DNA from: Adineta ricciae
Lineage: Eukaryota
Assembly (NCBI GenBank): GCA_905250025.1
Contig: CAJNOJ010000319.1
Location: 48,964 to 82,657 of the forward strand
Direction of reading: 5' to 3'
DNA length: 33,694 nucleotides
Both the position numbers and the translations under genes were made by a program. Each line of letters opens with the position of its first letter. Within the stretch, counting starts at the first letter, position 1. The notes below the pieces were generated by a model. The model saw only the letters and a list, made by a program, of their open reading frames with translations, was not told the DNA's origin and searched no databases. Below, one piece after another: positions 10,680 to 33,694 of this stretch.

Positions 10680-10696
10680 GAGAAAAGTCAATATGT

Positions 10697-10768: not shown

Positions 10769-10782
10769 TTTTCGTTTTTTTT
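10769..10782 (+). terminator. RNA polymerase III oligo(dT) terminator of the tRNA-Thr gene
   Basis: ttttcgtttttttt lies immediately 3' of the tRNA discriminator base. This is the eukaryotic Pol III termination signal and supports a eukaryotic origin for the window. Confidence 0.6.
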
Positions 10783-10836
10783 CTTGTTTTCTTTCTGTCT
10801 ATGTATTATGTTTTTATTTCGAAAAAAGAAAATCAT

Positions 10837-12084
10837 TTATTTTTCAATTGAAACTTTTTTTTTATAATTTTCATAAATCGATTGAATTTCTTCTGAAGAA
10901 ATAATTTGAGATAAATGTTGAAATGGATTTGGAGAACGATGATCAATAATACGAAGAATTTCATCAGGTCCATATTGACGTGCTAAAAGAACCATTCGAT
11001 CAGTTAAAGGATGACGAATACTTTCATAATGTTCAAGTGCTTTATTAGTAATTCCATGAAGAATAAATGATCGATATAATTGTTGAGCATCTAAAATAGC
11101 TTGTGAAGCTCCATTACCTCCATTTGGATACATAGGATGTGCGGCATCACCTATTAATGTTACACAATTAAATGTCCAACGAGGTATTTGATCACGATCG
11201 GTGATTGGAAATTGATTTATATTCATTGATGATTTGATTAATTGTTCAATATCAATGAAATCCAATTTCATTTCTTGAATTAATGGAAGAAAATCTTGAT
11301 GATTACCTTTGTTTGTCCAATCAATGGAATTTAATGATAATGAAGATGAATTTGTTTCATTTTGAATTCTCAAAACACACGCCCAATTAATTAAATTATT
11401 TGATAAAGGATATAAAATGAAATATTTCGTATCTGGATTTCCCATACAAATCATTGTTTTTCCATCAAGATAAGTATTTTCTTGATAAGTTATTCCACGC
11501 CAAATTTGAAGACCTTTCCAAACCGGTAAACCTTCATTCGGATAAAAAATTTTTCTCACACTTGAATTGATTCCATCAGCACCAATTAAAATCTTTGTTT
11601 GAATCACTTTGATTTTATTGATTTTTGTATTTAAAAATTTCAATTCAATTAGATTTGATTTTTCATTAAATTCAATTAATTTATGAGAAAGTTGAATAGT
11701 CGATGGAGAAGTTAATTTTTGTAATTGATAAAAAAGTATTTGATGTAAATATCCTCGATGTACTGAATACATTGGATGAGAATAACCTCCATCTAAACCT
11801 CGAAGATCTTCAAAAATGAATTGACCATGACGAGAATAAAACAACGCTTTTTTTGTTTGAATTCCAACTTGATTTAATTGATTTTCTAATCCAAGTTCAT
11901 AAAGACATTTTACGCAATATGGTTGAAGATTTAATCCAAATCCAACTGTATCAATATGTTCCGATTGTTCAAATAAACGAAGTCGAACATTTAAACGACT
12001 TAAATATAATGCTGTTATTAATCCACTGATTCCTCCGCCAATGATTGTTATATCAATAATATCATCATTGTCAACTGGATTCAT
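10837..12084 (-). CDS. Class A FAD-dependent aromatic monooxygenase (salicylate hydroxylase / UbiH-like, FAD_binding_3 type); single exon
   Basis: 415-aa intronless ORF. It has an N-terminal dinucleotide-binding fold IIGGGISGLITALYL...LFEQ, a DG motif GADGINSSVRK and a C-terminal GDAAHPMYPNGGNGASQAILDA FAD fingerprint. It is convergent with the type III PKS, with only the tRNA between them. Confidence 0.85.
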   Translation of the reverse strand: MNPVDNDDIIDITIIGGGISGLITALYLSRLNVRLRLFEQSEHIDTVGFGLNLQPYCVKCLYELGLENQLNQVGIQTKKALFYSRHGQFIFEDLRGLDGGYSHPMYSVHRGYLHQILFYQLQKLTSPSTIQLSHKLIEFNEKSNLIELKFLNTKINKIKVIQTKILIGADGINSSVRKIFYPNEGLPVWKGLQIWRGITYQENTYLDGKTMICMGNPDTKYFILYPLSNNLINWACVLRIQNETNSSSLSLNSIDWTNKGNHQDFLPLIQEMKLDFIDIEQLIKSSMNINQFPITDRDQIPRWTFNCVTLIGDAAHPMYPNGGNGASQAILDAQQLYRSFILHGITNKALEHYESIRHPLTDRMVLLARQYGPDEILRIIDHRSPNPFQHLSQIISSEEIQSIYENYKKKVSIEK

Positions 12085-12975: not shown

Positions 12976-15900
12976 ATGGTTCATAAAAGTTTTCAAATGA
13001 AACAAGCAGATATTTCCACTTTATCATCACCATTGAATGGTAAAATAATTGTACTCGAACTTGGTTATGAAATCAGTTTGAAAAGTAAACAAGAATTAAT
13101 GAAATATTTACGAGAAAAACAAGCACGTATTTCATATATATTGACATCCAGTGTATGCTCACATTGAGTTTTCTATTGATCATATATTTAAAATTGATTT
13201 CTTTAGACTGATTATGTTTTATCTACAAATAATGTCGATACTTACAAAATACGTCGTGCTAAACAACTTGGTTTACCAATAGTTGATGTTGAATATATAT
13301 GGAGATGTCGTTCTTTGTCATCTGATCAAAAACAAATTGATATTAATCAATTTATTATCAAATCAACGGAAGATCAAGAAAATTTTAGAAAAACGGGCAC
13401 TATTTCCGTGAGAAATATTTGTAATTCGTGTTCGATAGGAAGATCTCGAACGAATTTAACTCAAATGAAATTGTGGAATTCTGATGAAGTCGGTTTACCT
13501 CGTTTTGATGAATTAACTCATTGTGAAATTGGTAAATGGGCCATTTTTAAAGTAAATTTTCTATTTTATGATTTTCATAAATTTTTTCTTTTGTAAATAA
13601 TAGGAAACTAATGAAACTTTCGATGTATTTTTTGTTCTTGAACTTCAAGTTATTCCTGAACAATACTACGATCAAACAACAAGTGATTATCGATTAAGAT
13701 TTCGATATGAAAAACGTATTATTGATCAAACAGTGTTAATACAATATGCATTTAGTAATGATTCAAATGAACAACAACAATTATTTGCATCATATTATGA
13801 TCGAATAGCTAAAATGCCACGTATAACACGAATTCGTGAAATATTACATAATCAATTAGGATCAAAATTATTATTACGTGTAAATAAATAGGATTTAGAG
13901 AAAAAAGAAGAAAAGGAAAAATCAATTTGTATTTTTAGTCATTATTTACTCATTGTATTGATACACAAATACTCGATGCAAATGTGTGTCAATTAATCGA
14001 ATCACTTTGGTTGGAATCAATTGGTGATTTAAATCAAATTCTAAGTATAAAACCTGAATCATTTACTCTTAAAACGGTATTTACAAATATATTTATATGA
14101 ATTTATCAATTGAAATTATTAAATAGATTATTGAAGCTGAAGCTGCATTACTTGAACTCAAATTGACCAATGATCCTGCTGTTGCAGATCGTTTTTATTC
14201 ATTAATACCCCATCGATCACAGTATCATATTGATCTTATTAAGAATCGTCGAATATTGATTGAAAAACTCGACTTGTGTCAAGTAAAATTGTTTTTTTAA
14301 ATTTCTTCTCTTTTCTTTCTCAATTCTCTTATTCAGATGCTTCGAGATATGTTAACAGTCAATGAACTAACTAATTGGAATGTAAAAGCATCAATTGAAG
14401 CAAAATATCGAGCATTGAAATGTCATATTGAAACAATGTCAAATTCAACATCGGAATTTAAGAATATTGTGAATCTCATTCAATCATCCAGAAATAGGTG
14501 AGAAAATTGTACATAAAACAATTTTCTTCTTATTTATATAATTATAGTAATGAACAAATTGTTATTCATAATGTATTCAATGTCGTTAAACAGACAGATA
14601 CTCTCAATTTTTGTACAAAATTATCCAATCAACAACAACTTTTTCACGGATCAAAATATTCAAATTTCCTCGGAATTCTTTCACGGTAAAATATTCGTTT
14701 TATTCTTTAGAAAAGATTTTAATATTCCGATGATTATATGTATAAAGAGGTTTATCTATGCCAAAAATGGTAGTTGAAGAATTAGGTGTTGATCGCACTG
14801 ATATTGGTTGTCTTGGACATGGAATTTACTTTTCTAATTCTGTTTCAACATCTTTAAAATATACAACAGCAAGTACAGTACGATCAGGTCGTCGTTTATT
14901 ATGTATTTGTCAAGTGGCACTTGGTGAATCAGCTGATTATTATTCATATTCACCAACACTCATCAAACCTCCTGATGGTTTTCATAGTACACATGGAATT
15001 AAACAAACTGAAGATAATCATTCAATATTTAATGTAAGTTTCAATGAAAAATGAGAATCAATCTGAGAATATTTTCTAAATATTGTGATATGTAGGATGA
15101 TGAATATGTAATTTATCAAGTTGATCAACAACGTTTACTCTACATTGTAGAAGTTTCATGGATATTAAAAAATGAAATTAATATTGAATTAGAACGATTA
15201 TCAATTATTCATGATGAACAAAATCTATTTAAAACAAATGAAATTCCTACGATATTAATCGATGATGATAAAATTACTGAAATAGCTGAACAAGATTATG
15301 GTTTAATATGTTCATCATCAAGACAACTTGTTCCACTTAAATCATTTCATATTCGTGCTCAAATTATCGATACTACAGTTGAAGTAATTCGATCGATTTT
15401 TCTATTGAATTCATTTCTCATATATTTCTATTTGATTTCAAAAACAAAAGGTTGTTCTCTATCAAGTTTATCAAAATCCAAGTTCAATTCCAATTGAAGC
15501 CAAATATGTATTTCCTCTTGATGAAAATTCAATTGTTTGTGGTTTTGAAGCACATATCAATAATCAAATTATCAAAGGTATTGTTAAAGAAAAACAACAA
15601 GCGAAACAAGAATATAAACAAGCTATTGAAAAAGGTCATGGTGCTTATTTAATGCATCAAGAAGAAGCACAAGTATTTAGTGTTGCTGTTGGGAATTTAC
15701 CAGGTCATAATGAAGTTATTATTAAAATAACTTATGTTGCACAATTAGACATTGAAAATGGTGATATTATTTTTCGTTTTCCTGCTAAAATGGCTTCATG
15801 GCAATCGAAAAAAGCGATCGAAAACAAAGATCAATCAATTTTACGATCGATTAGTATTATCGATGAAAAAGTTCAATTTAGTTTGAAAGCATCAATTCGA

Positions 15901-17601
15901 ATGCCATATGAAATATCGAAATTATTTTCACCAACACATCGTCTTCGTCGAAAATTAACTGATTGTACAGCTATGATTGAACTTGTTGATAAGATTTTAT
16001 TTGATCAAGATTTTATTCTTTCAATAACACTTAAGAATCCTAATTTACCTCGAATATCAAATGAAACATCGAATAACGATGATTCTCAAGTATCGATGCT
16101 CACATTTTATCCACAATTTCAAACATTAATGAATTCAAACGAACAAATTGAAATTATTTTCATTGTTGATGTGTCAAATTCAATGGATGACAGTCAGACA
16201 CAACAAGCTAAACAATTAATTCATTTGTTTCTTATGAATTTGAAAGTTGATGATGAAAAAACATATTTTAATGTCATTTTTTTTGGATCAGGTAAGAAAA
16301 GACAATTGTCAAGTGTTATTTTATTATTTAAATTATCAATATTCATTTAGATAATGATGAATGTTTTCCTATTTCAATGTCAACAAAGAAAGAAAATCTG
16401 GATAAAGCCAAATATTTTGTTCTTGTGAGGATAATTTCTCTCTTTTTAATCAAATTTTCGTCTATTGAAATTTTAGCATTCACCTGTTCATCGTGGGAGT
16501 ACAAATCTATTTGCTGTTTTTCATCGTTATTCATTATTACCATCAACATTATCATCGAATTTCGGTCGTCAATTTATTTTATTATCTGATGGACATATTC
16601 ACGATCTTAATTCGATTCTTATTTTACTTAAACATCACCCAACTATGCAACATGATCGTTTATTTACATGTTCAATTGGTAATATCGCAAATAAACATAA
16701 TTTAAAACAATTGACTAATGAAGCAAATGGAGGTGGTTTATTCACAATATTTGATTCAAATTATCGATCAAAATGGAAAATAAAAGTATTGAATATTCTC
16801 GATAAGATTCACCAACCATGTATTACAAATATATCAATTGATTGGCATGGTTGTTTCAATAAAGAACAAAAGTTTCATATACAAGCACCAAAAAGAATTC
16901 GATCTTTGTTTAATGGAATGCGACTTACTGTTTATCGATTCATAGAAAATTGTCATAAGGCAACATTAACAGCTATTGTAAATGGACAAGAATTTGTTAC
17001 AACTGTATTTAGTAGTTCAATGACAACTAACAAAGGAAATATTTTACATTGTTTAACTACACGAGCGATCATTGATGATTATGATAATGGTCTATGGAAT
17101 GTCGATGAAAGTGAAAATGAATTAATTAAAATTCAATATAAACGAGATCTTATTGACCTTAGTATTAAACATTCTGTTATTAGTCCATACACTAGTTTTG
17201 TTGCCATTGAAGAACGTAATATTCAAATCGATCAAAATCATTCATCTTCGATTAGAAATGTTCGTTTACTTGATATTATGCTTGAACGAGATGAGGATTT
17301 ATTACCCTATATGAGTTGGGATGGTGATGTATCAAATTTGACTTTAATCAAACAAAACTTAGCCGATGCACGTCTTTTACTTCAATGTGCATCGTTTCAG
17401 AGTAAAAAGGAAACAATTGCTGATATTGAAAAACTTTGCCAAAAAATTTCGTATCGAACAGGTGGAGATGAAAAATTCAATGCAATGATGACGATCATAC
17501 GTACATATCGTTATTCATTGAGTGAATACGATCAAGCAGATGAAATTGAAGAGAAAATGCGACATGGTATCTCATTTGATTTATTAATAATATATATTTA
17601 A
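12976..17601 (+). CDS. Vault poly(ADP-ribose) polymerase (PARP4/vPARP)-like multi-exon gene: BRCT, PARP catalytic, VIT and vWA domains
   Basis: There are many short introns. A BRCT-like start runs about 12976-13330 (LNGKIIVLELGYEIS...IRRAKQLGLPIVDVEYIWRC). The PARP catalytic exons run about 14100-15130, with the H-Y-E triad in LFHGSKYSNFLGILS, GIYFSNSVSTSLKY and DDEYVIYQVDQQRLLYIVEV. The VIT domain runs about 15440-15980 (VVLYQVYQNPSSIPIEAKYVFPLDENSIVCGFEAHINNQIIKGIVKEKQQAKQEYKQAIEKGHGAYLMHQEEAQVFSVAVGNLP). The vWA exons run about 16140-16900 (IIFIVDVSNSMDD...). The TAA stop is at 17599-17601. A possible extra 51-bp intron (17567..17617) plus the exon 17618..17718 could extend the C-terminus by about 33 aa. 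Individual exon boundaries were not all resolved. Confidence 0.75.
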
Positions 17602-17883
17602 TCGAAAAAATCAATAGATATTATCATCGAAATGATTAATGCAACAGAAGAAGAACGACAAATATTGGAACAACAATGTTTCGCGAATAATTTAATAATC
17701 TCAAGCGATCAATTGTAAATCAAAGACAAATCTTTTTCGGAAAAAAAAATCAATATTCGTTTGTCTTTTAGTAAATTATTGGCTGAACATAATTCCACAG
17801 ACTTTTCAATTGCGAATAATACTAAAATAAGTGTACGTGAGTGAAACTGTAAGACGAAGAATTCTTCTATAGAAATACTCTAG

Positions 17884-18391
17884 GCTGATCAATTGACTGA
17901 AGAACAAATAGCTGAATTTAAAGAAGCGTTTTTTCTATTTGATAAACATGGTGATGGTACAATTACAATAAAACAATTAGGTACCGTAATGCGTAGTCTT
18001 GGTCATAATCCAACTGAAATTGAATTACAAGATATGATCAATGAAGTTGCTGCTGATGGTACGATTTTAATCAATCAAATTTGATTTGCTTCATTTGTTT
18101 TTGTATTGTCAGGTAATGGTACAATTGATTTTCCTGAATTTTTAACAATGATGGCACGTAAAATGAAAGATACTGATTCAGAAGAAGAAATTCGCGAAGC
18201 ATTCAGTGTTTTTGATAAGAATGGTGATGGAATTATATCAGTTGACGAATTTCGGTAACGAAAGAAAGGCAAATGTGCAAATTTATTTATTCTGTTTCTT
18301 TCTTTTTAAAGTCATGTTATGACAAATTTGGGTGAAAAACTCACCGATGAAGAACTTGATGAAATAATTCGTGAAGCAGATGTTAATGGAG
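17884..18391 (+). CDS. Calmodulin-derived EF-hand exons (3 exons: 17884..18058, 18113..18254, 18312..18391); the initiator-ATG exon is unresolved
   Basis: The translation is [133 protein letters not shown]. This is very similar to calmodulin. The introns sit where calmodulin introns are expected, including a first exon that would contribute only the ATG. The Ca-binding loops EF1 (position 12 is Q), EF2 (position 1 is A) and EF4 are non-canonical. Confidence 0.7.
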
Positions 18392-18461
18392 GTATAGACC
18401 TTTTTTTTGTAACCAAAACCCACTGAAATGAATGTTAAAACATGTTATGTTGTGATTTGAG

Positions 18462-19337
18462 GTGTCGATTTGATGGCGTTATTTGGTTCGTATAACCATG
18501 CAACTGATAAATCTGTATCGACTCCCGATAAGTCAAAATCATACGAACGATCTGAGAACATAGAAATATCTCCAAAAATCTTATCATTTGATGGTGAGAG
18601 AGAGGAAAATCTGCAATTTTCTGCAAATGAATCGAAAACTTCATTTTCAGCCAGTTCAGTATGTACATTTTCCATGGAACTTTTTTAAATAAAAATGTTA
18701 TTAACTTTTAGAGAGAACATAATGAGGATGACTTAATAACATTAGCGTCTAAAAGTGTTGAATCAAAATTCAATGTTTGTCCACTTAGTCTTGGAATAGA
18801 AGATATTTATGGTAATATGCATACACTTATTCATCGTAATACAACGATTCCAGTACAAACACAGTTTCATCAAATATTCACAAATGCTTATGCGTATCAA
18901 ACATCAGTTAATATTCGTATATTTGAAGGTGAACATAAACTTACAAAATACAATGTATGTAGTATTGGAACTTCAGAAACTTTTTGAATACAATCGTCCT
19001 CTATATTATAGATGTTTTTGGATGAATTTAGTCTTTCTGGTTTAACAAATAATTTGTTTGATCAAACACTTAAAATAGGCGTTCGTATGAATATTGATGT
19101 CAATGGAATACTTCGTGTTGATGCTGAAGAAGCTTGTTCAGGAGCAAAAGCATCATTTATTCTTTCTTCTGATAAGCCAAGTTCGAGAATTACTTTATAT
19201 GTTCCATATTATCATTGAATGTCATTTATATTTCTATAGGAATGAGCAAAGAAGATATTGAAAAACATATGACATTTGTAGAAAGTTATACAAATTCTAT
19301 AGTTGATGATGATAAATCCAATGATTCATTATATCCG
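18462..19337 (+). CDS. Linker exon plus Hsp70 substrate-binding-domain (SBD)-like exons, phase-compatible with the upstream calmodulin-like exons (18462..18658, 18712..18954, 19012..19180, 19240..19337)
   Basis: REHNEDDLITLASKSVESKFNVCPLSLGIEDIYGNMHTLIHRNTTIPVQTQ...IRIFEGEHKLTKYN matches the Hsp70 SBD-beta block (PLSLGIE...RNTTIP...Q..F.T...VYEGER..TKDN). ...NIDVNGILRVDAEE matches the Hsp70 block DIDANGIL.VSA. ...GMSKEDIEKHM matches the Hsp70 block GRLSKEDIERMV. No Hsp70 ATPase domain is encoded upstream. Confidence 0.55.
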
Positions 19338-19403
19338 GTTTGCATTAGTTTATTTATCTTTATATAAAGTTTAACATTTCACTTTGTTTTTATCTTTTCT
19401 CAG

Positions 19404-20178
19404 CTTGATGGTCAAATTACAAATATAACACATACTTTTTCTGACAAATTGGACACTTCATTCGGTAATTTATTCTTATTTACTATTTTATTGTAATGAT
19501 ATATAAATTTAGATCAAAAAGTTAACGTAACATTTCTTCGAAAAATGAAAGACATTCAATCAACAACAACAATCATTGAACAATTGCTAAAACTTCAATC
19601 TGAAGTAGAAATTTCATAAAATATATTTCTTACTTTCTATTTTATTCGAATCTATAGGATGGTTCATTTAGATTGAATTCCAATTTAGCTGATGTGTTTC
19701 GTATTGATCCTAATAGTTTAAATCATATTGAAATCTATTTAAATAAACAAGGTTTTAATTTACTTGGTAAGATCCAATGATTTTGTTTTTCACCAATATG
19801 AAATTTTTCCTATTCTAAGCTTTGAATATACAAAATGAAATTTATCATTTAATTGGTACGGGTATCGTTCTTCTTTGGTTTATACTTCAACTACCATCTC
19901 TACATCAGTATACAAACCAATTTTTATCCAACATCGAACAAATCGAAGTGAATGAGATTCTTTTTCGAACTATTTATTTTATATTCGAACTGTTTTGTCT
20001 TTAAATCTTTAAGATTGATCTTTGCAACTTTTTTCCTGATAACATAATTGAACATATTAACAAAGCGATTGAATTCTACCGACAAACAAGTCAACGTGAT
20101 GATATTTATTGTAAACAATTGGGATTGGATGATTCATCATGGAATATATTTATTCAACGTATATTTATCGGACTTTGA
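19404..20178 (+). CDS. vPARP/PARP4 C-terminal (MVP-interaction-region-like) tail exons (19404..19464, 19513..19604, 19658..19766, 19820..19947, 20014..20178; stop TGA)
   Basis: KMKDIQSTTTIIEQLLKLQSE|DGSFRLNSNLADVFRIDPNSLNHIEIYLNKQGFNLLG|ALNIQNEIYHLIGTGIVLLWFILQL...|IDLCNFFPDNIIEHINKAIEFYRQTSQRDDIYCKQLGLDDSSWNIFIQRIFIGL* aligns by eye with the extreme C-terminus of vertebrate PARP4 (LLSLQTEDGFWKLTPELG...SFLKQKGIQSLGVKGRECLLDLIATMLVLQFIRTRL...NIPWAFEAIKQASEWV...ICPRLELGNDWDSATKQLLGL). All splice phases are continuous with the Hsp70-SBD-like exons upstream. Confidence 0.6.
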
Positions 20179-20647
20179 CAATGTTAATCACTAACCGATC
20201 ATTGGAATTGATTTTTCTTTCTAAACTTGAATTACATCAAGAATAACTCTCATCTTTCTCGTTTTCAGATCAAAGATGTGAATGTAAGTGTAAGGTGAAG
20301 ATTAACTCATCAATGTGTTACCTGAAAACGTTTTTACTAAGTGAGTTCCGCCCATAAAACCTATTCCATTTAATGCAAAATTAAATTCTAAAACAAATAG
20401 ACTAAGTTTTACAGACTAGACACGACCTATTTAGTAAAATCATTTTAAGCTAATATATCGTTTCGTCAGCTTAATTTCACACTGATAGCGAAAGTTTATG
20501 ACGTAGATGTTCGTCACCGACAAGAGAATCCACTCACTTTTTCTGACATTTTGTCAACATATCGTTTAAAGTTGATATGAAGAATGAGACAAATAGTGGA
20601 CTTCACCATTCAACAACTCATTTTTCTTATATCTTCTTTCTTAAAAA

Positions 20648-21418
20648 ATGAAACAATTCTTTATGGTATTTTTAATTATCATGTTGAATATAAAGAAGAA
20701 TGAATTGAAATGTCTTCAAGCTTGGAATGGAAGTGGAACAGGTGCATGGTATCGTGTAGATACAATTTGTAATTCTTCATTTATCTCAACAGAACTCGTC
20801 AATTGTTTACCAACGATTATTTTACCTTCAAATTTAACAGCGTTTAGTGATGGATTTTATATCAGTTTAGGAGTTTTCAATCGTTTCAATGGAGTTTCGC
20901 TTGATATTGGTTTAACATTCGATTTGGGGAAAAATCGTTGGTTTTCTTACGGAAATGATCGACTGGGATGGAAGTCCGGAAGTATTTCAATTGATTCCAA
21001 TGAAAATCGTTGTATTAATGTTTCTTTAAGTATTTTTAACGATTATATTCATTATATTATTCGAAACTCGAATGGTTCAATTGTTTTAGGTGAAGATAAA
21101 TTTTATTCATTTCAAATTGATCCTCTATTGAATTTAACAAAAAATAATTCTGATTCATTTGGATTTTATCGTTTTGATAGTATTGCTCAAAGTAAAGAAA
21201 CATTGAAAAGTGGTTCTCAACTTATTCATGCGCAAATGTTCAATTGGACGCTAAAGTTTTCTTCAGGAGAAATTCTTCCAGCTAATGAATATAATATTGC
21301 TAAGAATATTAGTGGTTATTCACCAGGTATATGTTGTTCTAATCAAGAAATAAAAACGATTGAAATTCATCAACAAATCAAATGGAATCAATCGGATATA
21401 TCGATTCGATATATTTAA
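20648..21418 (+). CDS. Intronless secreted, heavily N-glycosylated protein of unknown function
   Basis: 256-aa ORF with N-terminal hydrophobic signal MKQFFMVFLIIMLNI, at least 10 N-x-S/T sequons and a C-terminal CC pair. It has no recognisable domain. The coding potential is judged from ORF length in an AT-rich background, where stops are frequent. Confidence 0.4.
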   Translation: MKQFFMVFLIIMLNIKKNELKCLQAWNGSGTGAWYRVDTICNSSFISTELVNCLPTIILPSNLTAFSDGFYISLGVFNRFNGVSLDIGLTFDLGKNRWFSYGNDRLGWKSGSISIDSNENRCINVSLSIFNDYIHYIIRNSNGSIVLGEDKFYSFQIDPLLNLTKNNSDSFGFYRFDSIAQSKETLKSGSQLIHAQMFNWTLKFSSGEILPANEYNIAKNISGYSPGICCSNQEIKTIEIHQQIKWNQSDISIRYI

Positions 21419-21522
21419 TAATCCAAATACTTCGAATTTCTAAATTTTATGAAATTATTTTATTTTCAATATTTTAATTCAATGACAGAATTACAATATT
21501 TAGATTTTCGAATAAAATGTTG

Positions 21523-23190
21523 TCAATATAATTCACTTGTATTCAGAGAAGCATTTCCATTTGATCCACTTGCAACTAATATCGTTCCATCAAGTAAAAG
21601 TGATGCGGTATGAGAATGTCGTATCGTACTCATATTCGATAGTATTGTCCAATTATTTGTTGATGGATCGTATAATTCAGCACTGTTGAGATAAACATTA
21701 TTTTTACTTTGTCCACCTGTTACTAAAATTGTTCCATTCAATAAAACAGTCGCTGTATGAAAGTATCGCGCAGTTGTCATACTCGATGTTGTTATCCAAC
21801 TATTTGTTGAAGGATTATATAATTCAGCACTGTTCAAAGAACTACTGCTACCGTAACCGCCTGTAACTAACACTTTTCCATTCTGTAGGAGAGATGCGGT
21901 ATGAGAATATCGTGCAACAGTCATGTTCGCCACTGTTGTCCAATTTCCCGTAGATGAATTATATAATTCAGCACTATACAGAGGTGCATTATTACTATAT
22001 CCACCTGCAACTAAGACTGTTCCGTTCAGTAAAACTGATGCAGAATGTCTGAATCTTGCAGCATTCATATTTCCTGTAGTTGACCAAGTGTTTATTGATG
22101 GATCATACAATTCAGCACTGTTCACATAACCACTATTAGCAGAACCACCTGCAACTAACACTTTTCCGTTTTGTAAGAGAGATGCTGTGTGATAATATCG
22201 TGTGATGCTCATATTTCTGGTTGTTGTCCAATTACCTGTAGATAGATTGAATAATTCTACGCTATTCAGAGAAGTAACACTATTTTGTCCACCTGTTACC
22301 ATTACTATCCCAGATAATAAGAGAGACGAAGTGTGATAAGATCGAGTAGTTCTCATGTTCCCTGTTATTGACCATGTATTAGTAGATGGATCATACAGTT
22401 CAGCACTGTTAAGAAAAGCGCTATCACTCTGTCCACCTACAACTAATACTGATCCGTTCGATAAAACTGATGCAGTATGTTTGTTTCGGGCAATATTCAA
22501 ATTTTTCATCGTTGTCCATCCTAAAGAACCAAAAAGTAAAAATCAGGTAAATTTACTCAATTAAAACTGTCAAATGTCGAAAGATAAATCGAAGTATTTC
22601 AATTGCTAGAAGATATTTTTCATTTATAAGAGAGTTCGTTATGCATCGATAACTATATAACATCAACATACTATTTATCTATTTTCTGAGGATTTTTCAA
22701 AAAAAAACGAACGACAAGTAATGAAAGAATTATTTCAATTTTGCCTTACCTTTCGGTGACGCAGTTGTTGTGGATGTTGATTCTATAATTTCAGAGAATA
22801 TCATAGAGAAAAACGAAGATTTCTTTGCTGTTATTTTGCTTTCTCGAAGTCTCGTCAAAATTCACTAAACTTACCATGTGTTATTATTGTTATAACGATC
22901 GATGTTCGATTAAGAAATACCATTGTAACATTCGAATAGGATTCAATTGTCAATGAATTATTATTTAAATTGAACAATTGGCACGTTTCATTTGAATGAA
23001 AATAATTGATAAGAGATACTGAATTGTTATTTAAATTGATCATTTGACAAATACATTCATCAAGTGTTCTATTGAAAAAGATCCGCGTTTCAGTACCAAT
23101 ATATGTGTAATCATATACTGTCCCAATGGCGATCGTATGAATTGTAGGTATGTAGAACAGAATCAGACTAAGAAAAATCACGTCTGTCAT
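21523..23190 (-). CDS. Secreted Kelch-repeat beta-propeller protein, 3 exons (22875..23190, 22750..22782, 21523..22520)
   Basis: Exon 1 holds a signal peptide (MTDVIFLSLILFYIPTIHTIAIG) plus a Cys/N-glycan-rich module, donor CATG|GTAAGT. A 33-nt Thr-rich exon (ESTSTTTASPK) follows. The last exon holds about 7 Kelch blades with the motif R-x-x-HTASLL-x-NG-x-VLV-x-GG...LNSAELY-x-PST-x-W. Phases are 1-1 and consistent. Confidence 0.7.
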
Positions 23191-23961
23191 TTTACGAGTG
23201 TTTCTGGAGGAAATTTCAACTGATTTATATAGGAGATTTTTTTCCTATGCAACAGTCTCATCTAATTATTTTCAAGTTAGGAGAGAGAAAGTCAGACAAA
23301 AGAAAACAAGGACATCAGCATCTTTTGATGAGTTATTGTCAGACAAAAATGCTATGAACTTATATTGTTACACATGAAATGCAATTGTCTTTGTCTACCG
23401 TCATTGTGATTAACGAATATTTGTTTATAGAATTTTTACCAAACGCGTTACAGAACCTCGATATTCATAATTTTCATGCGATTGAGTGCATATAATTAAT
23501 ACAATGCAAGCCTTTCCTTGATGAGAGTGCAAATGTTGGAAGAAAAGAAAAGAAAAGAAAACGTTGACATCAATAAGAAATATAATTTATCAAAAAGAAG
23601 CAATTGATATCTTGTTCGATTTGAGAATTAAGTTTTTTCTAAAAGACTTTTATTAGCACCAACAGAGAAATATTTGTTTAGTTTTTTTTCTCCATTGTAA
23701 TAATCAAAGTCCACGTTATGAAACCAAAGATAAAGAAGAAAATAATGCATTATCAGAACAATTGATAAGAAACAAATGAGTAACTTTACTTATTTTACCT
23801 CGTCATTTTGAAAATAGAAGATCAGAAATGAAAACACATTCATCTTCAATAAATAGTTTGAATAAAAACGGAATTCCAGTAAATTAATAAGAAATCTTCT
23901 GTTAAACTGAACTTTTCTCTTTTTTTTTTCAAAGATAAGTGTTATATCATCAGGATCACCT

Positions 23962-25898
23962 ATGAATGTCAATGATGAAACATCTGTTAATGATGTTCAA
24001 TTCAATCAAAATTCCTCTCAGGTAAGAATCTTTTATTTTGTTTTCCTTATGACAAGTGAGTTTTCGTTTAGAGAAGCTTTCTTAAGAAATTAATTCCAAA
24101 TTTTTTGCGAAAAAATTCGTCATCTGACGATGCTGACAATCCATATGCAAATGAATATGCTGATACTCAAGTTTTAGTTCAAGGAGAAAAAGTTGATTTA
24201 CATCGAAATTTACAAGAACGACATATGATCATGATTGCATTAGGTGGAACCATTGGAACGGGATTATTTTTAGCGTCTGGACAAGCTTTAGCATCGGCTG
24301 GACCTGGTGGCTCTTTAGTATCTTATTTAATCATTTCTGTTATGGTTTATTTCGTTATGACAAGTTTAGGTAAAATTATTTGATATCTTAGATGAAAAAG
24401 ACTTTTATGGTTTTTTTTAAAGCTGAATTAGCAACACAATATCCGATAAGTGGTTCCTTCAATACATTTGGAAGTCGATTTGTTGATGAAGCTTTTGGAT
24501 TTGCATTAGCATACAATTATTATTTTTCTTGGGTAACAACGATCGCAGGTGAATTAGTTGCTGCTGGTCTCATTGTTCAATATTGGTTGCCACACTTTCC
24601 CTCAATTGTTTGGTCAATCCTGGGAATGTTAGTTATGTTTTTATTAAATGCATTTACAGTGAAAGGTTATGGTGAAGCTGAATATTGGTTTGCAATGATT
24701 AAGGTCATAACTGTACTCGTATTTCTACTTGTTGGTGTTCTTGTTGATTCGGGTGCTATTGGAAAACCAAGAGAAACAATTGGTTTTAAGAATTGGAAAA
24801 TTGAAGGTGCACCTTTTGTTGGAGGAGTTGCTGGTGTTATTACAACATCGATTATATCTGGTTTTGCTTTTCAAGTACGAAGAATTTCGTTTTTTTCTCG
24901 AATATAATCTCTCAGCGAATATATAGGGAACAGAAGCAGTTGGAATTGCAGCTGGTGAAAGTTCCAATCCAAAAAAAGATGTTCCACGTGCAATGAATGG
25001 AACAATTTGGCGTATTATTTTATTTTTTGTTGGTGCTATTTTTATTATGGGTTTAATTATTCCATATAATGATAAAAAACTAAGTCAAATTAATGGTGTT
25101 GATAGTATCGCTGTTTCCCCATTTACATTAGTATTTAGTCTATCGGGTATTCCAGGAGCTGATCATATTATGAATGTTGTTATTTTAACAACAATCTTAT
25201 CAGCTGGTAATTCAGGTCTTTATTTATGTACAAGAATATTTTGGACTTTAGCAAATGAAGGCAAAGCACCGAAAATCTTTCGTCGTTTAACAAAAGGTGG
25301 AATACCAATTTATTGTTTAATTTTAACAACTGTTTTAGCAACTTCTTTGTTTGGTTTATCATTTGTTGGAAATCAAGTTATTTATATTTGGTTAGTTAAT
25401 ATGACGAGTGTTATGGGTTTCATTGCTTGGTTTGGAATCGCTATTGCACATTGGAGATTTCGTCGAGCGTTTCTCGCACAAGGTTATTCATTGAATGATT
25501 TGGTTTATAAAGCGTTATTCTTTCCTGTTGGACCATTTTTAGCATCGCTACTTATTTTACTTTGTGTTTTTGGACAAGGTTATTCAGCATTTACACAAAA
25601 AACCTTCAATTGTACTCAGTTACATGAAGAAGAAACCTATCTTTTTGAATTCAATAATCAATATTTAATCGATAGCGGAAATTCAACGACGTGTACAAAA
25701 ACAGTCTTTAATGTTCAAACATTTTTATCTGGTTATGTGATCTTACCAATCCTTGTTATTATGTTTTTCGTTTATAAATATGTTAAGAAAACGAAATTTA
25801 TTCCACTTAAAGATATTGATTTACTTACTGATAGTGTTATGGAACGTGATCGTTTGAAACGAGAAAGAATACAACAATTACAACAAACAGACGCTTAA
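23962..25898 (+). CDS. Amino-acid permease of the fungal/bacterial AAT (GAP1/LysP-like, PF00324) type, 4 exons (23962..24021, about 24072..24369, 24423..24874, 24927..25898)
   Basis: Signature ERHMIMIALGGTIGTGLFLASGQAL. Other conserved blocks are ELATQYPISGSFNTFGSRFVD, FAFQ|GTEAVGIAAGESSNPKKDVPRAMNGTIWRIILFFVG and NAGNSGLYLCTRIFWTLANEGKAPKIF. There are 12 predicted TM segments. Short introns have GTAAGA, GTAAAA and GTACGA donors. Confidence 0.8.
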
Positions 25899-26019
25899 TT
25901 TTATCTTCTACTTCAATTTCTCTTTTTTCTTCGATAGATTTTCAATAAAAATCTAAACTAATTATTTAAGTTTTGTGTGTCAATATTCTTTCTTTCATCA
26001 AGTATCATTTAAATGACAC

Positions 26020-27975
26020 AGTTGACACAAACATCTTGTGATTTGTCTTCTTCTTCATTTTGTGTTAATCTATGAAATCCTTTGTATCGATAGTTCCAAT
26101 TACTAAACATCAAATTATTTCAATTATTAATATTATTCAAATCAAACATAGTTTACCTATGAACAGCCACATGATACACAATCCAAGAAGCCAAAATCGA
26201 TAAAAATATAATCAAACATATGATGAGAAAAAAATATAGTTTTGTTATGTTAATTGTAATCGCCTGAAGATGTTTCAAATCAGTTAATAAGGATCGAATT
26301 GTAGACCAGCTTTCAACATCTGTATATGTATCTCCTTAGAAATAATAAATAAAACAAATTCAATATTTGAATAAACTAAACGTAAATTTATTTATGAATT
26401 ACTAGTAGATGATTCTATTGTAGATTTCATATGTATGTCATTATTCTTTTGTATTTGCTCAATAGTATATGGTTGGTCTGGAATAATGACACTATCAGAT
26501 GGAATTAGTCTATATATATCAAAAGTAGATATTGTATGAATATATAAAAATCAATTTTTACCTCGTTATATTACCAGGATATTCTCCCCAACAAAATTCA
26601 ATCAAAGGATTAAATCTTTCCCATTTATTATTATTTAGTACAGCTGGCTCATATGAATACATTGCATATATATTACACATTTCATCATCATGTCTTTGTC
26701 TAGTTCACGGAAATAAAATTTATTCTATTGTATATAAAACTATTCGATCTTACCCGATGTTAATAATTCTATCATCATTGTTATCATAAACACATTGACC
26801 AATAATAAAATCACCCTTTTCAATCTGTATAAGTGATGAAAGTGGATAAAATGATTGAGGCCATTGTGGATTACTTTTACCAATCTGTAAAATAGTTTTA
26901 TTTCGTACTCGATATATTGAAGATACCCTTCCTATGACAATAAATAGTTTCAATGATCTTCCATAAATATATACAAAAAATTCGAACCCCATTGATGTGT
27001 ATGATAGTGGAGAGCAAATATGGATATTGCAGGTCCAAGATAACGACATGAAAAGGGTGTTCGAATATCTAGAAGATTCAATTTGAGTGGGATAAAAGAT
27101 ACGTTAAAACCTTGTTCGAGTACCTTGTGTTCTCGGTGGTAAAGTGATATTTGATGTACCAGCTAAAAACATTCCTGCATGATACTTTCGCCTATAAGAT
27201 AAAAATAAAATCTTATTTAAAAAAGGATGGTACAGGTATTTGAAATTATTTATTACATCTTTCGAGTAAAAAGAATTTGGATACCAGAATTATCATTGGT
27301 AATAATTGGCAAATAATGAATATTCATTACAAGATATTTGTATGATGTATTATGACCAACAACAAAACCAGTATCTTAATAGAATAACATTGTGATTTTT
27401 CTTTCTTATTTAATGAAAAACACCTTTAGGTAATGCTAATGAAGATCCATTTCTTGACCAATCATAAATGATCATTTGTTTATTTCTACATGCTGTTCCA
27501 TCAAACCTATAAAAATAATTTTACTGTTTAATTTTTAAAGTCAAATTATTAAATAATACCAAATGGATTCATTAGATGTGGGAGTAACACAAGCCAACGT
27601 GAGTATATGATGAGCTGTATTCATATTAGCCAATGGTTTAAAATCAACTTCAGTTTTTAAAAGTAAATCATTTTCGCGATGAGTAAAATTTCAAACTTAC
27701 TAATCATCAATTTTTCATCAGGTAATTTATATTGGATATATACTTGTTGATCTCCCTAAAAATGTCAAGAATTATTTTTATGATCGTCGTTTTATAATCA
27801 TATTTACTTCTTTTGTTGTCACATTCTTCATAGTAAAATTAAAAGTGAAATTATCTTCATTATCATAAATATCTTGCGAATGAATGTATTTGATGTTAAT
27901 AAGAAGAAAAATTAAAATATTTTGAATAAGTAATATTTCTATATTCATTATTTTATGTAACACATTTCTTAACAT
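26020..27975 (-). CDS. Peptidylglycine alpha-hydroxylating monooxygenase (PHM/DBH-type copper type II ascorbate-dependent monooxygenase), multi-exon, with signal peptide and C-terminal TM anchor
   Basis: Exon 1 is at 27778..27975 (signal MNIEILLIQNILIFLLINIKYIHS). One exon encodes VDFKPLANMNTAHHILTLACVTP, the CuH-site HH..L..C signature. Another encodes FDGTACRNKQMIIYDW. Exon 26750..27049 encodes RNKTILQIGKSNPQWPQSFYPLSSLIQIEKGDFIIGQCVYDNNDDRIINIG, which matches the PHM C-domain block SPQLPQAFYP...CV. Downstream exons encode a TM segment LYFFLIICLIIFLSILASWIVYHVAV. The 3' end (26020 vs 26165) is uncertain. Confidence 0.7.
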
Positions 27976-28154
27976 CTAAAAATGTTAGAAACTAATACTT
28001 GTTAGTTTATTCTACTAAATAAGATGAGAAAAAAAACCCACAGATCACTTGTAAAAGCAGAAGAAACGCAGTTTTAAATGCATTAAATATTTTAAAGTCT
28101 GTTTAAACATTTGCTATCATTGTCAAGCTAGCAAATCGATTCTTCGTGCTAACT

Positions 28155-28940
28155 TCACGCTGGTGTTCGTGCTTGACAACAACAATAGAAGTTTGTATTA
28201 GAAGTGCAAATACCCTTATTACTGAGATCTATTGTGGAAGGTGGAGTTGGAAATCCTCGACGACGGCGACTCGCCATCGCCAAACTGGTCCCGGGAAAAG
28301 TCGTAACACAAGAGCCGTCGTTGCTAACAGGAACAGAGTTGATGACAGTGTCAAAACCACCTTTAGTACAATAGGTGACACAATTAGTTGAACTAGTGGC
28401 GCCGCCAGTTATAGTATAACCAACAGAACAAGTAACACCTGTTGGTTTAGATGTTGTTGTGGTTGTAGTAGTAGTAGTAGTTGTTGTTGTTGTCGTTGTG
28501 CTGGTAGTGGTAGTAGTTGTCGTTGTGCTGGTAGCGGTAGTAGTAGTAGTTGTTGTCGTTAGTGGTGTGATGACTGCATAAAAATATAATTAGTCTCATT
28601 TAATCTTAAGTCGACTAATTTGGGTATTAAACCTTGTCGAAATCCTAAGAGAGTGTAGGTGTATGCGATATTTATGACTTCTCACTTATGAATGTTTTTT
28701 TTATTTTGATAACTACATTTATGACTAGCTCATATCAGTTATTCTCAACAATTTTCAAAGAAAATCAATAATATTTTGGAGACGGGATGTGATTCATATT
28801 TTTCATGAAATGCATTTTTCAATCCGTGATATCTGTCGTATCATTCAGCGAACTAGTCTGCAACATACACATACAAACCTCTTCTAACTACGTATATCTT
28901 AGATAGGACACTCACCTTTTGTTGTAGATATTGTTTGCAT
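28155..28940 (-). CDS. Small Thr-rich (mucin-like) protein with Cys-containing C-terminal module, 2 exons (28916..28940, 28155..28573)
   Basis: Minus-strand translation: MQTISTTK|VITPLTTTTTTTTATSTTTTTTTSTTTTTTTTTTTTTTSKPTGVTCSVGYTITGGATSSTNCVTYCTKGGFDTVINSVPVSNDGSCVTTFPGTSLAMASRRRRGFPTPPSTIDLSNKGICTSNTNFYCCCQARTPA*. Donor AAAAG|GTGAGT, acceptor tttttatgcag. It sits in a locally GC-richer island. There is no obvious signal peptide in the short first exon, so the 5' end may be incomplete. Confidence 0.4.
28440..28562. repeat. Imperfect trinucleotide (GTN/ACN) microsatellite with an internal tandem duplication of about 30 nt; encodes the poly-Thr tract on the minus strand
   Basis: gtagtagtagtagtagttgttgttgttgtcgttgtgctggtagtggtagtagttgtcgttgtgctggtagcggtagtagtagtagttgttgtcgtt. 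The unit gtcgttgtgctggtagYggtagtag is repeated twice. Confidence 0.8.
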
Positions 28941-29102
28941 CGTTGTAGTTGTTGACACTAAAATAACTGTAAAAAAAACGAAGAAGGAATATTGCACACG
29001 GTTATAAACTTAGTCGTGAAAACAGCTATTCACAAAGATCTATATATAAATGTCATCAGAAAATAATTGAACGCGATCAATAAAAACAGGATGATATCTT
29101 TT

Positions 29103-30075
29103 TTATATGTCCTGTTTCAATCCGAGAGACAGACTATGTGAATAAACATGACGATAAATACCTGGTTGAATCTCATTAAACGAACAGAATGTGAGTCCGA
29201 TTGTAATTGTTGAACCATTAACCGTTGTCAGCAGTAGTTGTGTTTGTTCACGCAAGGCCGTTTCAACTCTTGCCAATGTTTCACGGAATGTCTTTTGACA
29301 ATTATTCGAGAGACATGTAGATTTAGGTTTCAATATAAATCTAATAAAGAGATAATCCCCTGATGTGCCCGGATCGATGGTACATTGTTGAGCTTTTGAT
29401 CTAGAAATAAAAAAATATATTCGATTTTAGAACAGTTACAAGTATGTACTCGATGTCTCGTCGTTTTTTGTACGTAGTTGTTGATACTGATGAAATGAAT
29501 ACAAATTTGGCTGTAGTAACAATAACATTTGGATATTGTGCTGTTAACTGTGAAATTAAAAAAAAAACCAAATGTAAAATTCTATTAATATGAAACAGTA
29601 TACTAGAGCAGCTAAACTGTCAGCATTGTCAGCTACTGCTGTATCAGTACTTTTAAAATTAGTTCCATAAGAGACATTTATCATATTGCTGACTAAAAAT
29701 AAAGAAATTAAGTTTAATACAAATTAATATGGAAAAAAGTGAGTTCGTACGCGGAGCATTGTTAGTAACAGTGAAATCACTTCTTGATATGTATGTTGGA
29801 ATTAAACTGAGCACAACAACAATTGCAGCTAAGCAAGGAATACACATTAAGCAACATAAAAAAACCAGTGGCGTTCGTTTCCTGTAAAAAAATGAAGATA
29901 TTTTCTTATAGAAGACATTGCATATTCTATTATTGATCAAGACATGAATCTGTGACTATAGTATGTTTCTTATTGGCAACTACGTAACAATAAACTGTAC
30001 TAGTCACTCGAAAAATGTGAATGTAAAATAATACTCATACCGTAACTTAATTGCTGTTCCATTATTCGTGTCCAT
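29103..30075 (-). CDS. Multi-exon gene for a predicted type II (N-in) single-pass membrane protein of unknown function
   Basis: Exon 1 encodes MDTNNGTAIKLR (ATG at 30073-30075 on the minus strand), donor GTATGA. Exon 2 encodes KRTPLVFLCCLMCIPCLAAIVVVLSLIPTYISRSDFTVTNNAPR (TM helix), donor GTACGA. Further exons end in ORF 29103..29333 (...CLSNNCQKTFRETLARVETALREQTQLLLTTVNGSTITIGLTFCSFNEIQPGIYRHVY...). No family was recognised. Confidence 0.35.
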
Positions 30076-30473
30076 TTGAAGAGTTGTCAGATGACACTTA
30101 CAGATAGTTAAAAATTCAATTATTTATCAAAACGATAAAGAAAATCTAAAAGAGATAAATTTCATTTAAGCTGGATAACAAAGAAGTGGCGCCCATACGT
30201 TGACCCTTTTCTGAAAGAGGTAGAAAAATAGTAGATAAAAATCTTCACTTTGATCTCAATCCAATCGGCTACGAACTGAAGTCTCTTTTATGCATATTCT
30301 TCCATTTTACCCCTTTCTACTTTATTCATGTCAAATTACTTCCAATTCATTTGCCCAAATACGTGTTTAAGCAAAATAAACACTGTTTCTACACATTTAT
30401 TCATCGACTTTCTTTTGACTAGTTAAAATAAAAAATTAATTTACTTCCACTTATTTTATCTCTTCTAAGTGAC

Positions 30474-30798
30474 CATATGATGCGTTATAGCGTTTACCAG
30501 GAAATTCTATATGTTTTCGGTATCAACTGATTTCCCGGAAATTGAATTTCTTGATCAGACAAACCGAACAGTCCAGATAGTTATAATGCTCATACAGGGT
30601 ATATAGGGCACAGACACTCACCCGGTACCCTCACTGAGAGAGATCCATACCGACACCCTCGCCCTCCAGATGCCCTGTATGAGCATTATAACTATCTGGA
30701 TTGTTCGGTTTGTCTGATCAAGAAATTCAATTTCCGGGAAATCAGTTGATATCGAAAACATATAGAATTTCCTGGTAAACGCTATAACGCATCATATG
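30474..30798. repeat. Perfect 126-bp inverted repeat (arms 30474..30599 and 30673..30798) around a 73-bp GC-rich spacer; hairpin/foldback element
   Basis: The left arm catatgatgcgttatagcgtttaccaggaaattctatatgttttcggtatcaactgatttcccggaaattgaatttcttgatcagacaaaccgaacagtccagatagttataatgctcatacaggg is the exact reverse complement of the right arm. Spacer: tatatagggcacagacactcacccggtaccctcactgagagagatccataccgacaccctcgccctccagatg. The termini are the palindrome CATATG. No clear target-site duplication was seen. Confidence 0.85.
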
Positions 30799-32115
30799 CT
30801 TCAGTTCAGCGTCTTGAGCAAGTGAGGGCCGAACTTGTCAATAAGTTATAAATGTTTTTCTGAAAATCGCTATCCTTGGTTTGAAAAAAGTTTCTTTAAT
30901 TCTGAAAAAAGTAACATCAGATTCGAAGTCTCCGCATCGAAATACCTCTGGAAATGTCTTTTCGGAAAAATCCATTTTCGATGTTTTTTGATCCTGTGGA
31001 CATACAAGCAAACAAACAATTTATGTTTCTAATACTCTTCTCTACGAGAAAGAGAATATAATACGATTTGTCGACGGTTGTTAAGGCAAATGAATAAGAC
31101 TCACTTTTTGGGTGCATAAAAAGGTAAATGGCCGGTATATCTACTACGTCTTTAATTACTTGCCCAGTAATACACGAAAATGTGAATAAATATTTTTGAT
31201 TTATAGAGTCGCAAATATTCTAGTTTTTGTATTTTTTCTTGTTTTTGTGAATGTTCGCTTATGCGGAGCTTTTGATGTCATTTTTTGTAGACGATTGCTT
31301 GTATCCGCTCTTATCAATCGTTGTACATAAAATAAAAAGTTGTTTTCACCAATAAGCTTACGCATCCTTCATTATATTTACAAAGAAAATGTAATAGGCG
31401 TCAAGCTGAGACACAGTTTCGTTTGAATGGCTTAACAACGCTCAAGCCAATATGATTCGGTCGGTTTCGGCCGGTTAGTTTCATTTTCCGACGATCGTTC
31501 TGGATCGATCAAAACGTACACAAAAGTTTCTTCGACAAACAGAAACAATAATAAACAAGAATTCTTTACGATTAATATTAAAATAATTTCATTAATATAT
31601 GAATATCAATAGAAATTGAAAATTTGAACCAGAGCAAGTAAATTCTTTTTAAGATTTATTTTGAGTATTTTTTTGTATAGTTCACTGTAAACCAGAGCTG
31701 AGCACATGACAGGACGGAAAATCTTGTCCTGTGCTCATCTCTGTTGTAAACACGATTGAATCTAGTAAAGTTGATGTTTACAATTCCAATATAATTCTAT
31801 AGGATTTTATCGACAAAAGACCAGTCATTGTATATGCTTTGAAAGGGTTTTTTACACATAATTTAACTCTTTGAGTCCCGCCAACGCATATATGCATCCA
31901 AATGCAATTATCTGACAAAGGTACTCCTGATATAGTTTTTAATTGTTTATAACGCCTCTCAATCGTTTTATTTGATGGTACGACTCTAGAGTAATCCCCA
32001 TTTCTTCCCTTTCTGCTTATTAATAATACATATTTATATTATATGTGCTTTTCTTCGTTCTGTATGATAGTACACACTATCTCTCATTCTAGCACATTCC
32101 AATACAGTCACTAAA

Positions 32116-32486
32116 ATGGTACAAGAAGCTATTTTTCCATGTTTTGCATATGGCACTATATATAGTGCATTTGTTATTCAAAAAATGCAGAACAATATTT
32201 CCTCTGATCTATGTGATTTTCGACTTGAAGTAATCAGACAAATTTTGACGAAGTATGGACCACAAAGATCGACTACGATTGGAAGACCATCAACAGGAGA
32301 TTCTTCTCTTCGTCTAAGTGATCGACATTTTCTTGCACTTTTTCCATAAACATCACAATCAAACCAACCTCGAAGAAAATGCGTCGCTTGTGCATCACAT
32401 AATATTCATAGTGATACACGATATATCAGGCCCGATTGCGATGTACCCCTGTGTATCGTTGATTGCTTCAGAGACTATCATAAAAA
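32116..32486 (+). pseudogene. 5'-truncated piggyBac-family transposase relic (C-terminal about 120 aa only) with an in-frame TAA
   Basis: Translation: ...EVIRQILTKYGPQRSTTIGRPSTGDSSLRLSDRHFLALFP*TSQSNQPRRKCVACASHNIHSDTRYIRPDCDVPLCIVDCFRDYHKK. The GRPS...RL..RHF block and the C-terminal Cys-rich CxxC...C..C...C...H module are typical of piggyBac transposases. A stop (TAA 32347-32349) interrupts the frame. The catalytic core is absent upstream, and no ORF was found in 31120-32115. Confidence 0.7.
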
Positions 32487-32989
32487 GATGAAATATTAAT
32501 GACTGCTCGAGACAAATATGTAATCTTTTGACGAAATATCGTTAAAAATCTTCGATTTTCGCAAAAAAAGCCGAGACTGAAAGGTTTAAGTACAATCATT
32601 TTTACCTATCTCATTAGCCCGTGACGAGAGGGGATTCTTTCTTATTTTCTCTCCTTTCATTACTTGTTCACGTTTTCATTTGCAAAAAACGTTTAGTTGA
32701 CAAGGAAAACATCAAATGCAAACAAAATAAAAATAATAAGTATCTCGTTATACGCTCCTTAGGAAAATTTTTCATTATGACCCATATTTGCGATACCGTC
32801 AAATTCAGAATACGATTGAAAAGATTTTATAAATTGACTATGATTTGTAAATTTAATTGAGTAACAAAATGAAACAGAACAGAAAATGTTCAATGAAATA
32901 AAATCAACAAAAAGAATTCTTTTCAATATTGATTTTTTGAAATGGATGCCAATTGCTTCTTTCATATCATTCATTTAATCAATATCAAA

Positions 32990-33694
32990 TGAATACTCTT
33001 ATTCAAATTTTGTTTCTTTTCAACCTTTCAAATCGATTAAATGGAAAATCTTTACAAAGATTTCCTCGAGGTTTGTTTTTTTCTTTTCAAAAAATTCTTT
33101 TTTTCACTATTTTTGTTCGTTGAAAAGGAGCCTATGCATATTCATCAAATATCTATGTTCGTTGTTTTTCATCTGATTCATTGGTAAAACTTTTCAATGG
33201 CACAACCAAATCCATATCAAATCTTAACATAGGTGATCAGTTAATGACAATCGATGACAATTCATTAAAAATTCTCTCCACTGAGATGCTTTTTATGTTA
33301 CATGAATCAAAAAATGAAACAAGTAATTCGTATAGTGAAAGAATTCGAAATGAACTTTTTTGTTGTCTTCAAGGTTTTTTTTATAAATTAAAAACAAAAT
33401 CAAATCATGAGATCAGTTTAACAGGAAATCATTTAATTCCAATAAAAGAATCTTTAAGTGGAAATTTTCTTTATATTTTGACAAAAACTATTAAAATTGG
33501 TGATTATTTAATTATTTATGAAAATGGTAAAATTGAATATTCTCAAGTGATAAAGAAAACAAAAGAAATAAAGAAAGGTTTTTATGCTCCATTGACAATG
33601 ACTGGAACATTATTTATCAATGAAATTTACTCAAGTTCATTTGCAAATATTCCAAATCATTATTTAGCTCAATTTTATTTATTTCCAATTCGAT
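32990..33694 (+). CDS. Hedgehog-type Hint (Hog) autoprocessing-domain protein, partial (continues beyond window); exon 1 32990..33071, exon 2 33128..>33694
   Basis: Exon 1 encodes MNTLIQILFLFNLSNRLNGKSLQRFPR (signal-peptide-like), donor CGAG|GTTTGT. Exon 2 encodes GAYAYSSNIYVRCFSSDSLVKLFNGTTKSISNLNIGDQLMTIDDNS...FMLHESK...EISLTGNHLIP...GFYAPLTMTGTLFINEIYSS. The Hint hallmarks are present: the catalytic C-F at the N-terminal boundary, the TxxH motif (SLTGNHLI) and the YAPLT.HGT block. Confidence 0.7.

Follow-up and report, generated by a model that had tools for sequence, protein, structure and literature searches.

The closest described counterparts of the locus analysed here are found among class II DNA transposons and among hairpin-RNA loci. 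MITEs and other internally deleted class II elements, of which the Stowaway-like relatives of Tc1/mariner are an example, are recognized by terminal inverted repeats (TIRs), small size, lack of a transposase, a target-site duplication of fixed length, insertion polymorphism and, as their defining feature, several copies dispersed over the genome. In the Foldback (FB) element of Drosophila, long inverted arms form most of the element and the central loop is short. Tc1-like transposons of the IR/DR type, such as Sleeping Beauty, Tc3 and Minos, have long TIRs with two transposase-binding direct repeats in each, and a TA duplication. The hpRNA loci of animals, from which endo-siRNAs derive, can form long and near-perfect intramolecular duplexes. 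In bdelloids, a 'foldback-like' DNA transposable element (TE) is known from fosmid contigs (PMC2861651), and a survey of bdelloid TEs reported a predominance of class II elements in the recent, low-divergence fraction and classified some repeats as MITEs (PMC7943196). The literature on bdelloid genomes also speaks of 'palindromes'; these concern collinearity at the scale of genes and not short hairpins, and were rejected as instances of the same thing.

The window (the whole 33,694-nt stretch of contig CAJNOJ010000319.1 of the bdelloid rotifer Adineta ricciae that was analysed) contains an inverted repeat of 325 bp at 30474-30798, most probably a small remnant of a DNA transposon and as such an ordinary feature. 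Three intronless reading frames of the window are identical to A. ricciae proteins at NCBI. The repeat is found both by direct reading and by a repeat finder. Its left arm (30474-30599) and right arm (30673-30798) are 126 nt each and account for 78% of its length, and they enclose a spacer, or loop, of 73 nt (30600-30672); none of the three parts is assigned a strand. These coordinates agree with those of the first-pass annotation, which had also taken the arms to be 100% complementary. The latter is incorrect, as 124 of the 126 positions pair (98.4%). The two mismatches place G at 30520 against T at 30752 and G at 30571 against T at 30701, so that both are G·T on the + strand. Because the arms are imperfect, the argument from perfect arms to recent formation or active maintenance is weakened. 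The inner edge of the repeat is slightly fuzzy: after a third mismatch two more bases pair (30601-30602 with 30670-30671), for which reason the repeat finder gives arms of 129 nt at 98%. At both outer edges complementarity ends abruptly, and the boundaries are sharp.

An inverted repeat of this kind is far from what chance would produce. It pairs exactly over up to 50 consecutive nt, whereas the longest such run was 12-17 nt when the window was shuffled 30 times with dinucleotides preserved, and no other inverted repeat in the window extends beyond 39 nt at 72%. When folded as RNA, either strand reaches about -243 kcal/mol, with a z score of about -33. A search with TRF over 30300-31000 returned no tandem sub-repeats. 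A second, small hairpin is present at 31688-31748, between the main repeat and a piggyBac relic described below; its 27-nt arms are 81% complementary and its loop is 7 nt.

The spacer is 56% GC, rising to 60% in a 67-nt core, and is C-rich on the + strand, while the arms are 36% GC. The surrounding DNA is about 30% GC at the kilobase scale and varies from about 12 to 40% in 40-nt windows, with the left flank falling to 12-30%. The spacer is the most GC-rich 70 bp of the neighbourhood; the earlier description had put it at about 58% GC in DNA of about 30%. Base composition bears on the main rival explanation, in which the unit is a non-mobile, local inverted duplication. A double-strand break or a stalled fork would have been repaired by fold-back priming or template switching, with 126 bp copied in reverse and the 73 bp between the switch points becoming the loop. 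Arm and spacer should in that event be ordinary local DNA, yet the spacer is as GC-rich as described and no part of the unit resembles the rest of the window; the symmetric CATATG/TA ends would also be a coincidence. In favour of such a duplication, the unit is single copy in all sequence searched, it has no unambiguous target-site duplication, and its arms are near-identical, as expected soon after duplicating. The locus has, in addition, clearly been remodelled, as seen in the 7.2-kb lineage-specific block to which we return below, and bdelloids repair massive DNA breakage after desiccation. Taking both sides together, we regard a local duplication as possible but doubtful.

The unit has no coding capacity, and its longest open reading frame (ORF) is 47 aa. 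A 57-aa translation of the arm found no relative among 5.8 billion proteins in a word-indexed search, and an exhaustive phmmer search of 1.84 billion representatives gave one match, to a TPR-repeat ATPase, which is a chance match by composition. Rfam returned nothing relevant at gathering or at permissive thresholds. Other copies of the arm or spacer were absent from the 33.7-kb window by blastn, and none was present either in 9.5 kb of contig sequence from the other haplotype or in contigs of related bdelloids totalling about 100 kb. When 18-20-mers were used to scan JGI metagenomes, GTDB genomes and IMG/VR, they gave chance matches of 20-25 nt only, in unrelated bacterial or metagenome contigs, and plasmid and phage collections gave no match to the unit. 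That no second copy was found in the window, the other-haplotype contig, the bdelloid contigs or JGI/GTDB/IMG/VR counts against a transposon, and no transposase related to the unit was identified.

The fold and the searches together bear on another explanation, namely that the unit is a selected hairpin-RNA (endo-siRNA) gene, which would be transcribed and whose 126-bp stem would be diced into small RNAs that regulate a target gene or TE. Either strand indeed gives a stem of about 126 bp that is uninterrupted and very stable, and both mismatches would be G·U wobbles in a + strand transcript, a very weak point given that, for two transition mismatches, it has a 1 in 4 chance of arising anyway. 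Fold energies are equal on both strands, however, and no complementary target was found in the window. Nor is there conservation, as the syntenic interval of a related bdelloid is without the block that carries the repeat and the bdelloid contigs fetched (L005-L011) are without similar sequence. Any transcribed MITE would, moreover, yield siRNAs without being a gene. We consider a selected gene of this type quite improbable. The broader proposal, that the hairpin is either a maintained hairpin-RNA gene, its arms kept paired to feed the expanded small-RNA silencing machinery of an asexual bdelloid, or a fresh fold-back scar from the repair of desiccation-induced breaks, caught between the two haplotypes, would likewise be a long shot.

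The repeat might instead be an assembly or amplification artefact, either an inverted chimera from MDA or a hairpin in a de Bruijn graph. Inverted chimeras are a known product of MDA. One published A. ricciae data set (ARIC003) underwent REPLI-g whole-genome amplification before Illumina/SPAdes assembly (PMC7943196). Contig CAJNOR010001146.1 of a second assembly (GCA_905250095.1) corresponds to 3427-33110 of the window with 10 differences, none of which is in the repeat; since the two are identical there, the repeat is reproduced together with its two mismatches. Two agreeing assemblies may come from the same reads, which lends the artefact some support, as does the amplification. The arms differ at two sites, however, and an artefact would have copied them without differences. 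The repeat is also internal, with unique sequence on both sides running into syntenic genes; in a chimera, the left flank would follow again as its reverse complement. With no Ns in the window and an identical sequence in the second NCBI contig, an artefact is very unlikely.

The comparison of the two assemblies (about 29.7 kb) also yielded an observation away from the repeat. Nine of the 10 differences cluster at 25331-25688, in the last exon of an amino-acid permease gene (AA_permease); all nine are transitions at synonymous third positions, their distances being multiples of 3, and they leave the protein unchanged. The other haplotype looks like the source of this short patch, whether through gene conversion or through a mosaic consensus.

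The neighbours of the repeat are a gene on one side and a TE relic on the other. To its left is a Thr-rich gene encoding 336 aa, annotated on the NCBI contig on the - strand at 28155-30075 (L002 17508-19428, offset +10647), and the repeat is positioned 400-720 bp upstream of the start codon of this gene. The last exon of the gene contains a long (ACN)n Thr tract at 28448-28560 followed by a Cys-rich C-terminal domain. This arrangement resembles that of mucins and has no recorded Pfam match, and a homologue search with the exons returned nothing. To the right of the repeat, ORFs longer than 80 aa are absent up to a Hint-domain gene that starts near 33130, and the repeat shares a 3-kb gene-free interval with the relic.

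The relic is the C-terminal part of a piggyBac-type transposase. It occupies 32116-32497 on the + strand, 1.3 kb to the right of the repeat and outside the element, and has one in-frame stop (32347-32349). It aligns to residues 497-576 of the 578 of the piggyBat transposase (9c0f; E=1.7e-6), and its match to Pfam zf-Tnp_2 (E=2.6e-4, 21.9 bits) is just under the cut-off of 24. The piggyBat match bears out the degenerate piggyBac fragment reported in the first-pass annotation. The 'TE-derived zone' proposed with it is sustained as far as this one confirmed relic, as the six reading frames of 30.8-33.1 kb gave no further TE domain. The relic raises the question of whether the repeat is a MITE derived from piggyBac, or whether it represents the 5' end of the adjacent decayed piggyBac copy. 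A full-length ORF (about 578 aa) ending at 32497 would start near 30.76 kb, that is, at the repeat. A piggyBac origin is, however, essentially refuted by two missing hallmarks, the TTAA duplication and the CCC…GGG termini. In addition, the DNA from the repeat to the C-terminal relic shows no detectable trace of a DDE domain, and no inverted repeat joins 30.4 kb with 32.5-32.8 kb. We find this derivation hardly credible.

Comparison with a related bdelloid indicates that the setting is specific to the lineage. In contigs of this relative from metagenomes (L006-L011), the orthologous AA_permease gene is followed by the Hint gene after a gap of 134 bp (locus coordinates about 10894-11028), whereas in the A. 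ricciae window the distance between the two is 7.2 kb (25899-33130). The additional block, which contains a Cu2 monooxygenase gene, the Thr-rich gene, the hairpin repeat and the piggyBac relic, is therefore lineage-specific. Nothing resembling the repeat was found in contigs L005-L011, in which the block is absent or rearranged. Both A. ricciae haplotypes carry at least the monooxygenase part of the block, in copies 96% identical in amino acids. Alleles of AA_permease (CAF1404238.1) and the Cu2 monooxygenase (CAF1404254.1) are on a 103,994-bp contig of the other haplotype; they were found via exact gene models of the two genes, rebuilt by enumerating chains of GT-AG introns. The Cu2 monooxygenase gene (26392-27831) is annotated differently in the two NCBI assemblies, with 316 aa in one and 403 aa in the other, the longer model adding a C-terminal transmembrane tail.

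The haplotypes also provide a yardstick for the age of the repeat. Near the locus they differ by 7.8% in nucleotides, as measured between 15089-24587 of the window and contig L004, which ends 6 kb short of the repeat; the two arms differ from each other by 1.6%. This difference fits a comparatively young insertion. Over the 9.5 kb of L004 the nucleotide identity is 92.2% with 42 gap openings, a high intragenomic divergence for 'alleles'; the encoded proteins are 96-99% identical.

Several genes elsewhere in the window deserve mention in their own right. The amino-acid permease (23828-25898, 619 aa) has its best non-rotifer matches among lysine-specific permeases of bacteria and fungi (e.g., Providencia, Peribacillus, Basidiobolus, and Rhizopus) at 42-49% identity; the A. 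ricciae gene has four short introns and is a candidate for horizontal acquisition. At 9423-12084, an intronless type III polyketide synthase gene (chalcone-synthase-like, + strand) and a gene for an FAD-dependent monooxygenase (- strand) converge on a tRNA-Thr(TGT) at 10696-10769. The polyketide synthase is syntenic in other bdelloid contigs, and horizontal transfer may have brought in the two genes as a biosynthetic pair. The gene annotated at 12997-20178 (L002 2350-9531) is very large, encoding 1921 aa with PARP, VIT, VWA, and EF-hand domains.

The ends of the repeat narrow the choice among transposon superfamilies. The repeat is flanked by …GTGAC on the left and CTTCAG… on the right, and its termini read CATATG…. 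The exact direct duplications at its boundaries are TA, ATAT or CATATG only; as all are self-complementary, they merge with the repeat and are inseparable from the palindrome. The candidate left target-site duplication is TA at 30476-30477, with ATAT (30475-30478) and CATATG (30474-30479) as alternatives, and the candidate right one is TA at 30795-30796, an exact boundary duplication inside the palindrome; neither is assigned a strand. With TA as the duplication, the element proper would be 30478-30794 and would start with TGATGCG, the candidate terminus after the putative duplication being (TA)TGATGCGTTATAGCG. TA is the most economical choice, since only two more pairs of flanking bases would have to be complementary by coincidence, with odds of about 1 in 16. 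ATAT and CATATG would be less economical because a 4- or 6-bp duplication must then happen to be palindromic. There is no TTAA duplication at the ends of the repeat, nor any 7-10-bp target-site duplication there even when one mismatch is allowed, which argues against insertions of the piggyBac, hAT, P, Mutator, and Drosophila FB types. The termini (CATATGATGCG / TGATGCG) are not known to fit any canonical superfamily terminus.

Inside the arms, the motif CCNGGAAATTSWAT occurs twice on the left (30497-30510 and 30534-30547, + strand), 37 bp apart, and is mirrored on the right at 30725-30738 and 30762-30775. The two occurrences may be putative sub-terminal binding sites, a weak feature; the motif was defined post hoc from the sequences in hand.

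Considering all these properties, we put at about even the chances that the 325 bp represent what is left of a non-autonomous class II DNA transposon with long TIRs, of the MITE or foldback type and possibly with a TA duplication. A transposon fits the sharp boundaries, the composition shift at the edges and the lack of coding capacity, and it also fits a lineage-specific intergenic block that carries a TE relic and a possible TA duplication. As for the features by which MITEs are recognized, the unit has terminal inverted repeats and small size and has no transposase; for the duplication, the candidates are TA, ATAT or CATATG only, all of which merge with the repeat. The first-pass annotation had listed a foldback or MITE-type element, a hairpin-RNA locus and a breakpoint palindrome without choosing among them. 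The first of these fits best, with the qualification that the unit is neither derived from piggyBac nor a Foldback of the Drosophila type.

A transposon origin may be pictured as follows. Of the original element, two long TIRs would have been retained with 73 bp between them, the state of a MITE or of a foldback-like derivative formed by internal deletion. An autonomous relative would have supplied the transposase in trans, and the enzyme would have bound the ends, perhaps through CCNGGAAATT, present twice per arm. The unit, mobile at that stage and presumably one of several copies, would then have inserted into an AT-rich intergenic site. Its family is possibly Tc1/mariner-like. If so, TA would have been duplicated on insertion, and the empty site would have been GTGACCA-TA-TGCTTCAG; on the other haplotype, the predicted clean empty site is GTGACCATATGCTTCAG or similar. 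The copy would subsequently have gained two transitions, and would now be passive, 400 bp upstream of the Thr-rich gene.

The significance of the unit depends on which of these origins applies. A MITE-like insertion would add a further low-copy remnant to the DNA transposons of bdelloids. Its value would not go beyond that of a presence/absence marker between the A. ricciae haplotypes, which are 7.8% apart at the locus, and in that role it would contribute modestly to what can be said of TE activity and of gene conversion in an asexual lineage. The unit would matter more if it proved to be single copy and specifically absent from the other haplotype, in which case it would be a dated repair scar, or if it produced abundant small RNAs.

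Set against the described systems, the unit resembles animal hpRNA loci in that a long near-perfect intramolecular duplex is possible; it is known here from sequence alone, and conservation was not found in contigs L005-L011. With the IR/DR Tc1-like transposons it has in common long TIRs, a short motif that occurs twice per arm and ends compatible with TA. It differs from them in the placing of the motifs, which are separated by 37 bp and lie away from the extreme end, and in having no transposase; the resemblance is a lead only. Long inverted arms that form most of the element and a short central loop are shared with Drosophila FB, from which the unit differs in its unique-sequence arms without tandem sub-repeats, the lack of a 9-bp duplication and its much shorter length. 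The 'foldback-like' bdelloid element, which is grouped with FB, also has long arms and a short loop in common with the unit (PMC2861651). Compared with MITEs and other internally deleted class II elements, the unit is unusual in the length of its TIRs (126 nt), its ambiguous duplication, its unrecognized termini and the lack of a known partner transposase. It is like them in being 325 bp long, non-coding, foldable and bounded by TIRs, in its possible flanking TA, and in its intergenic, promoter-proximal position.
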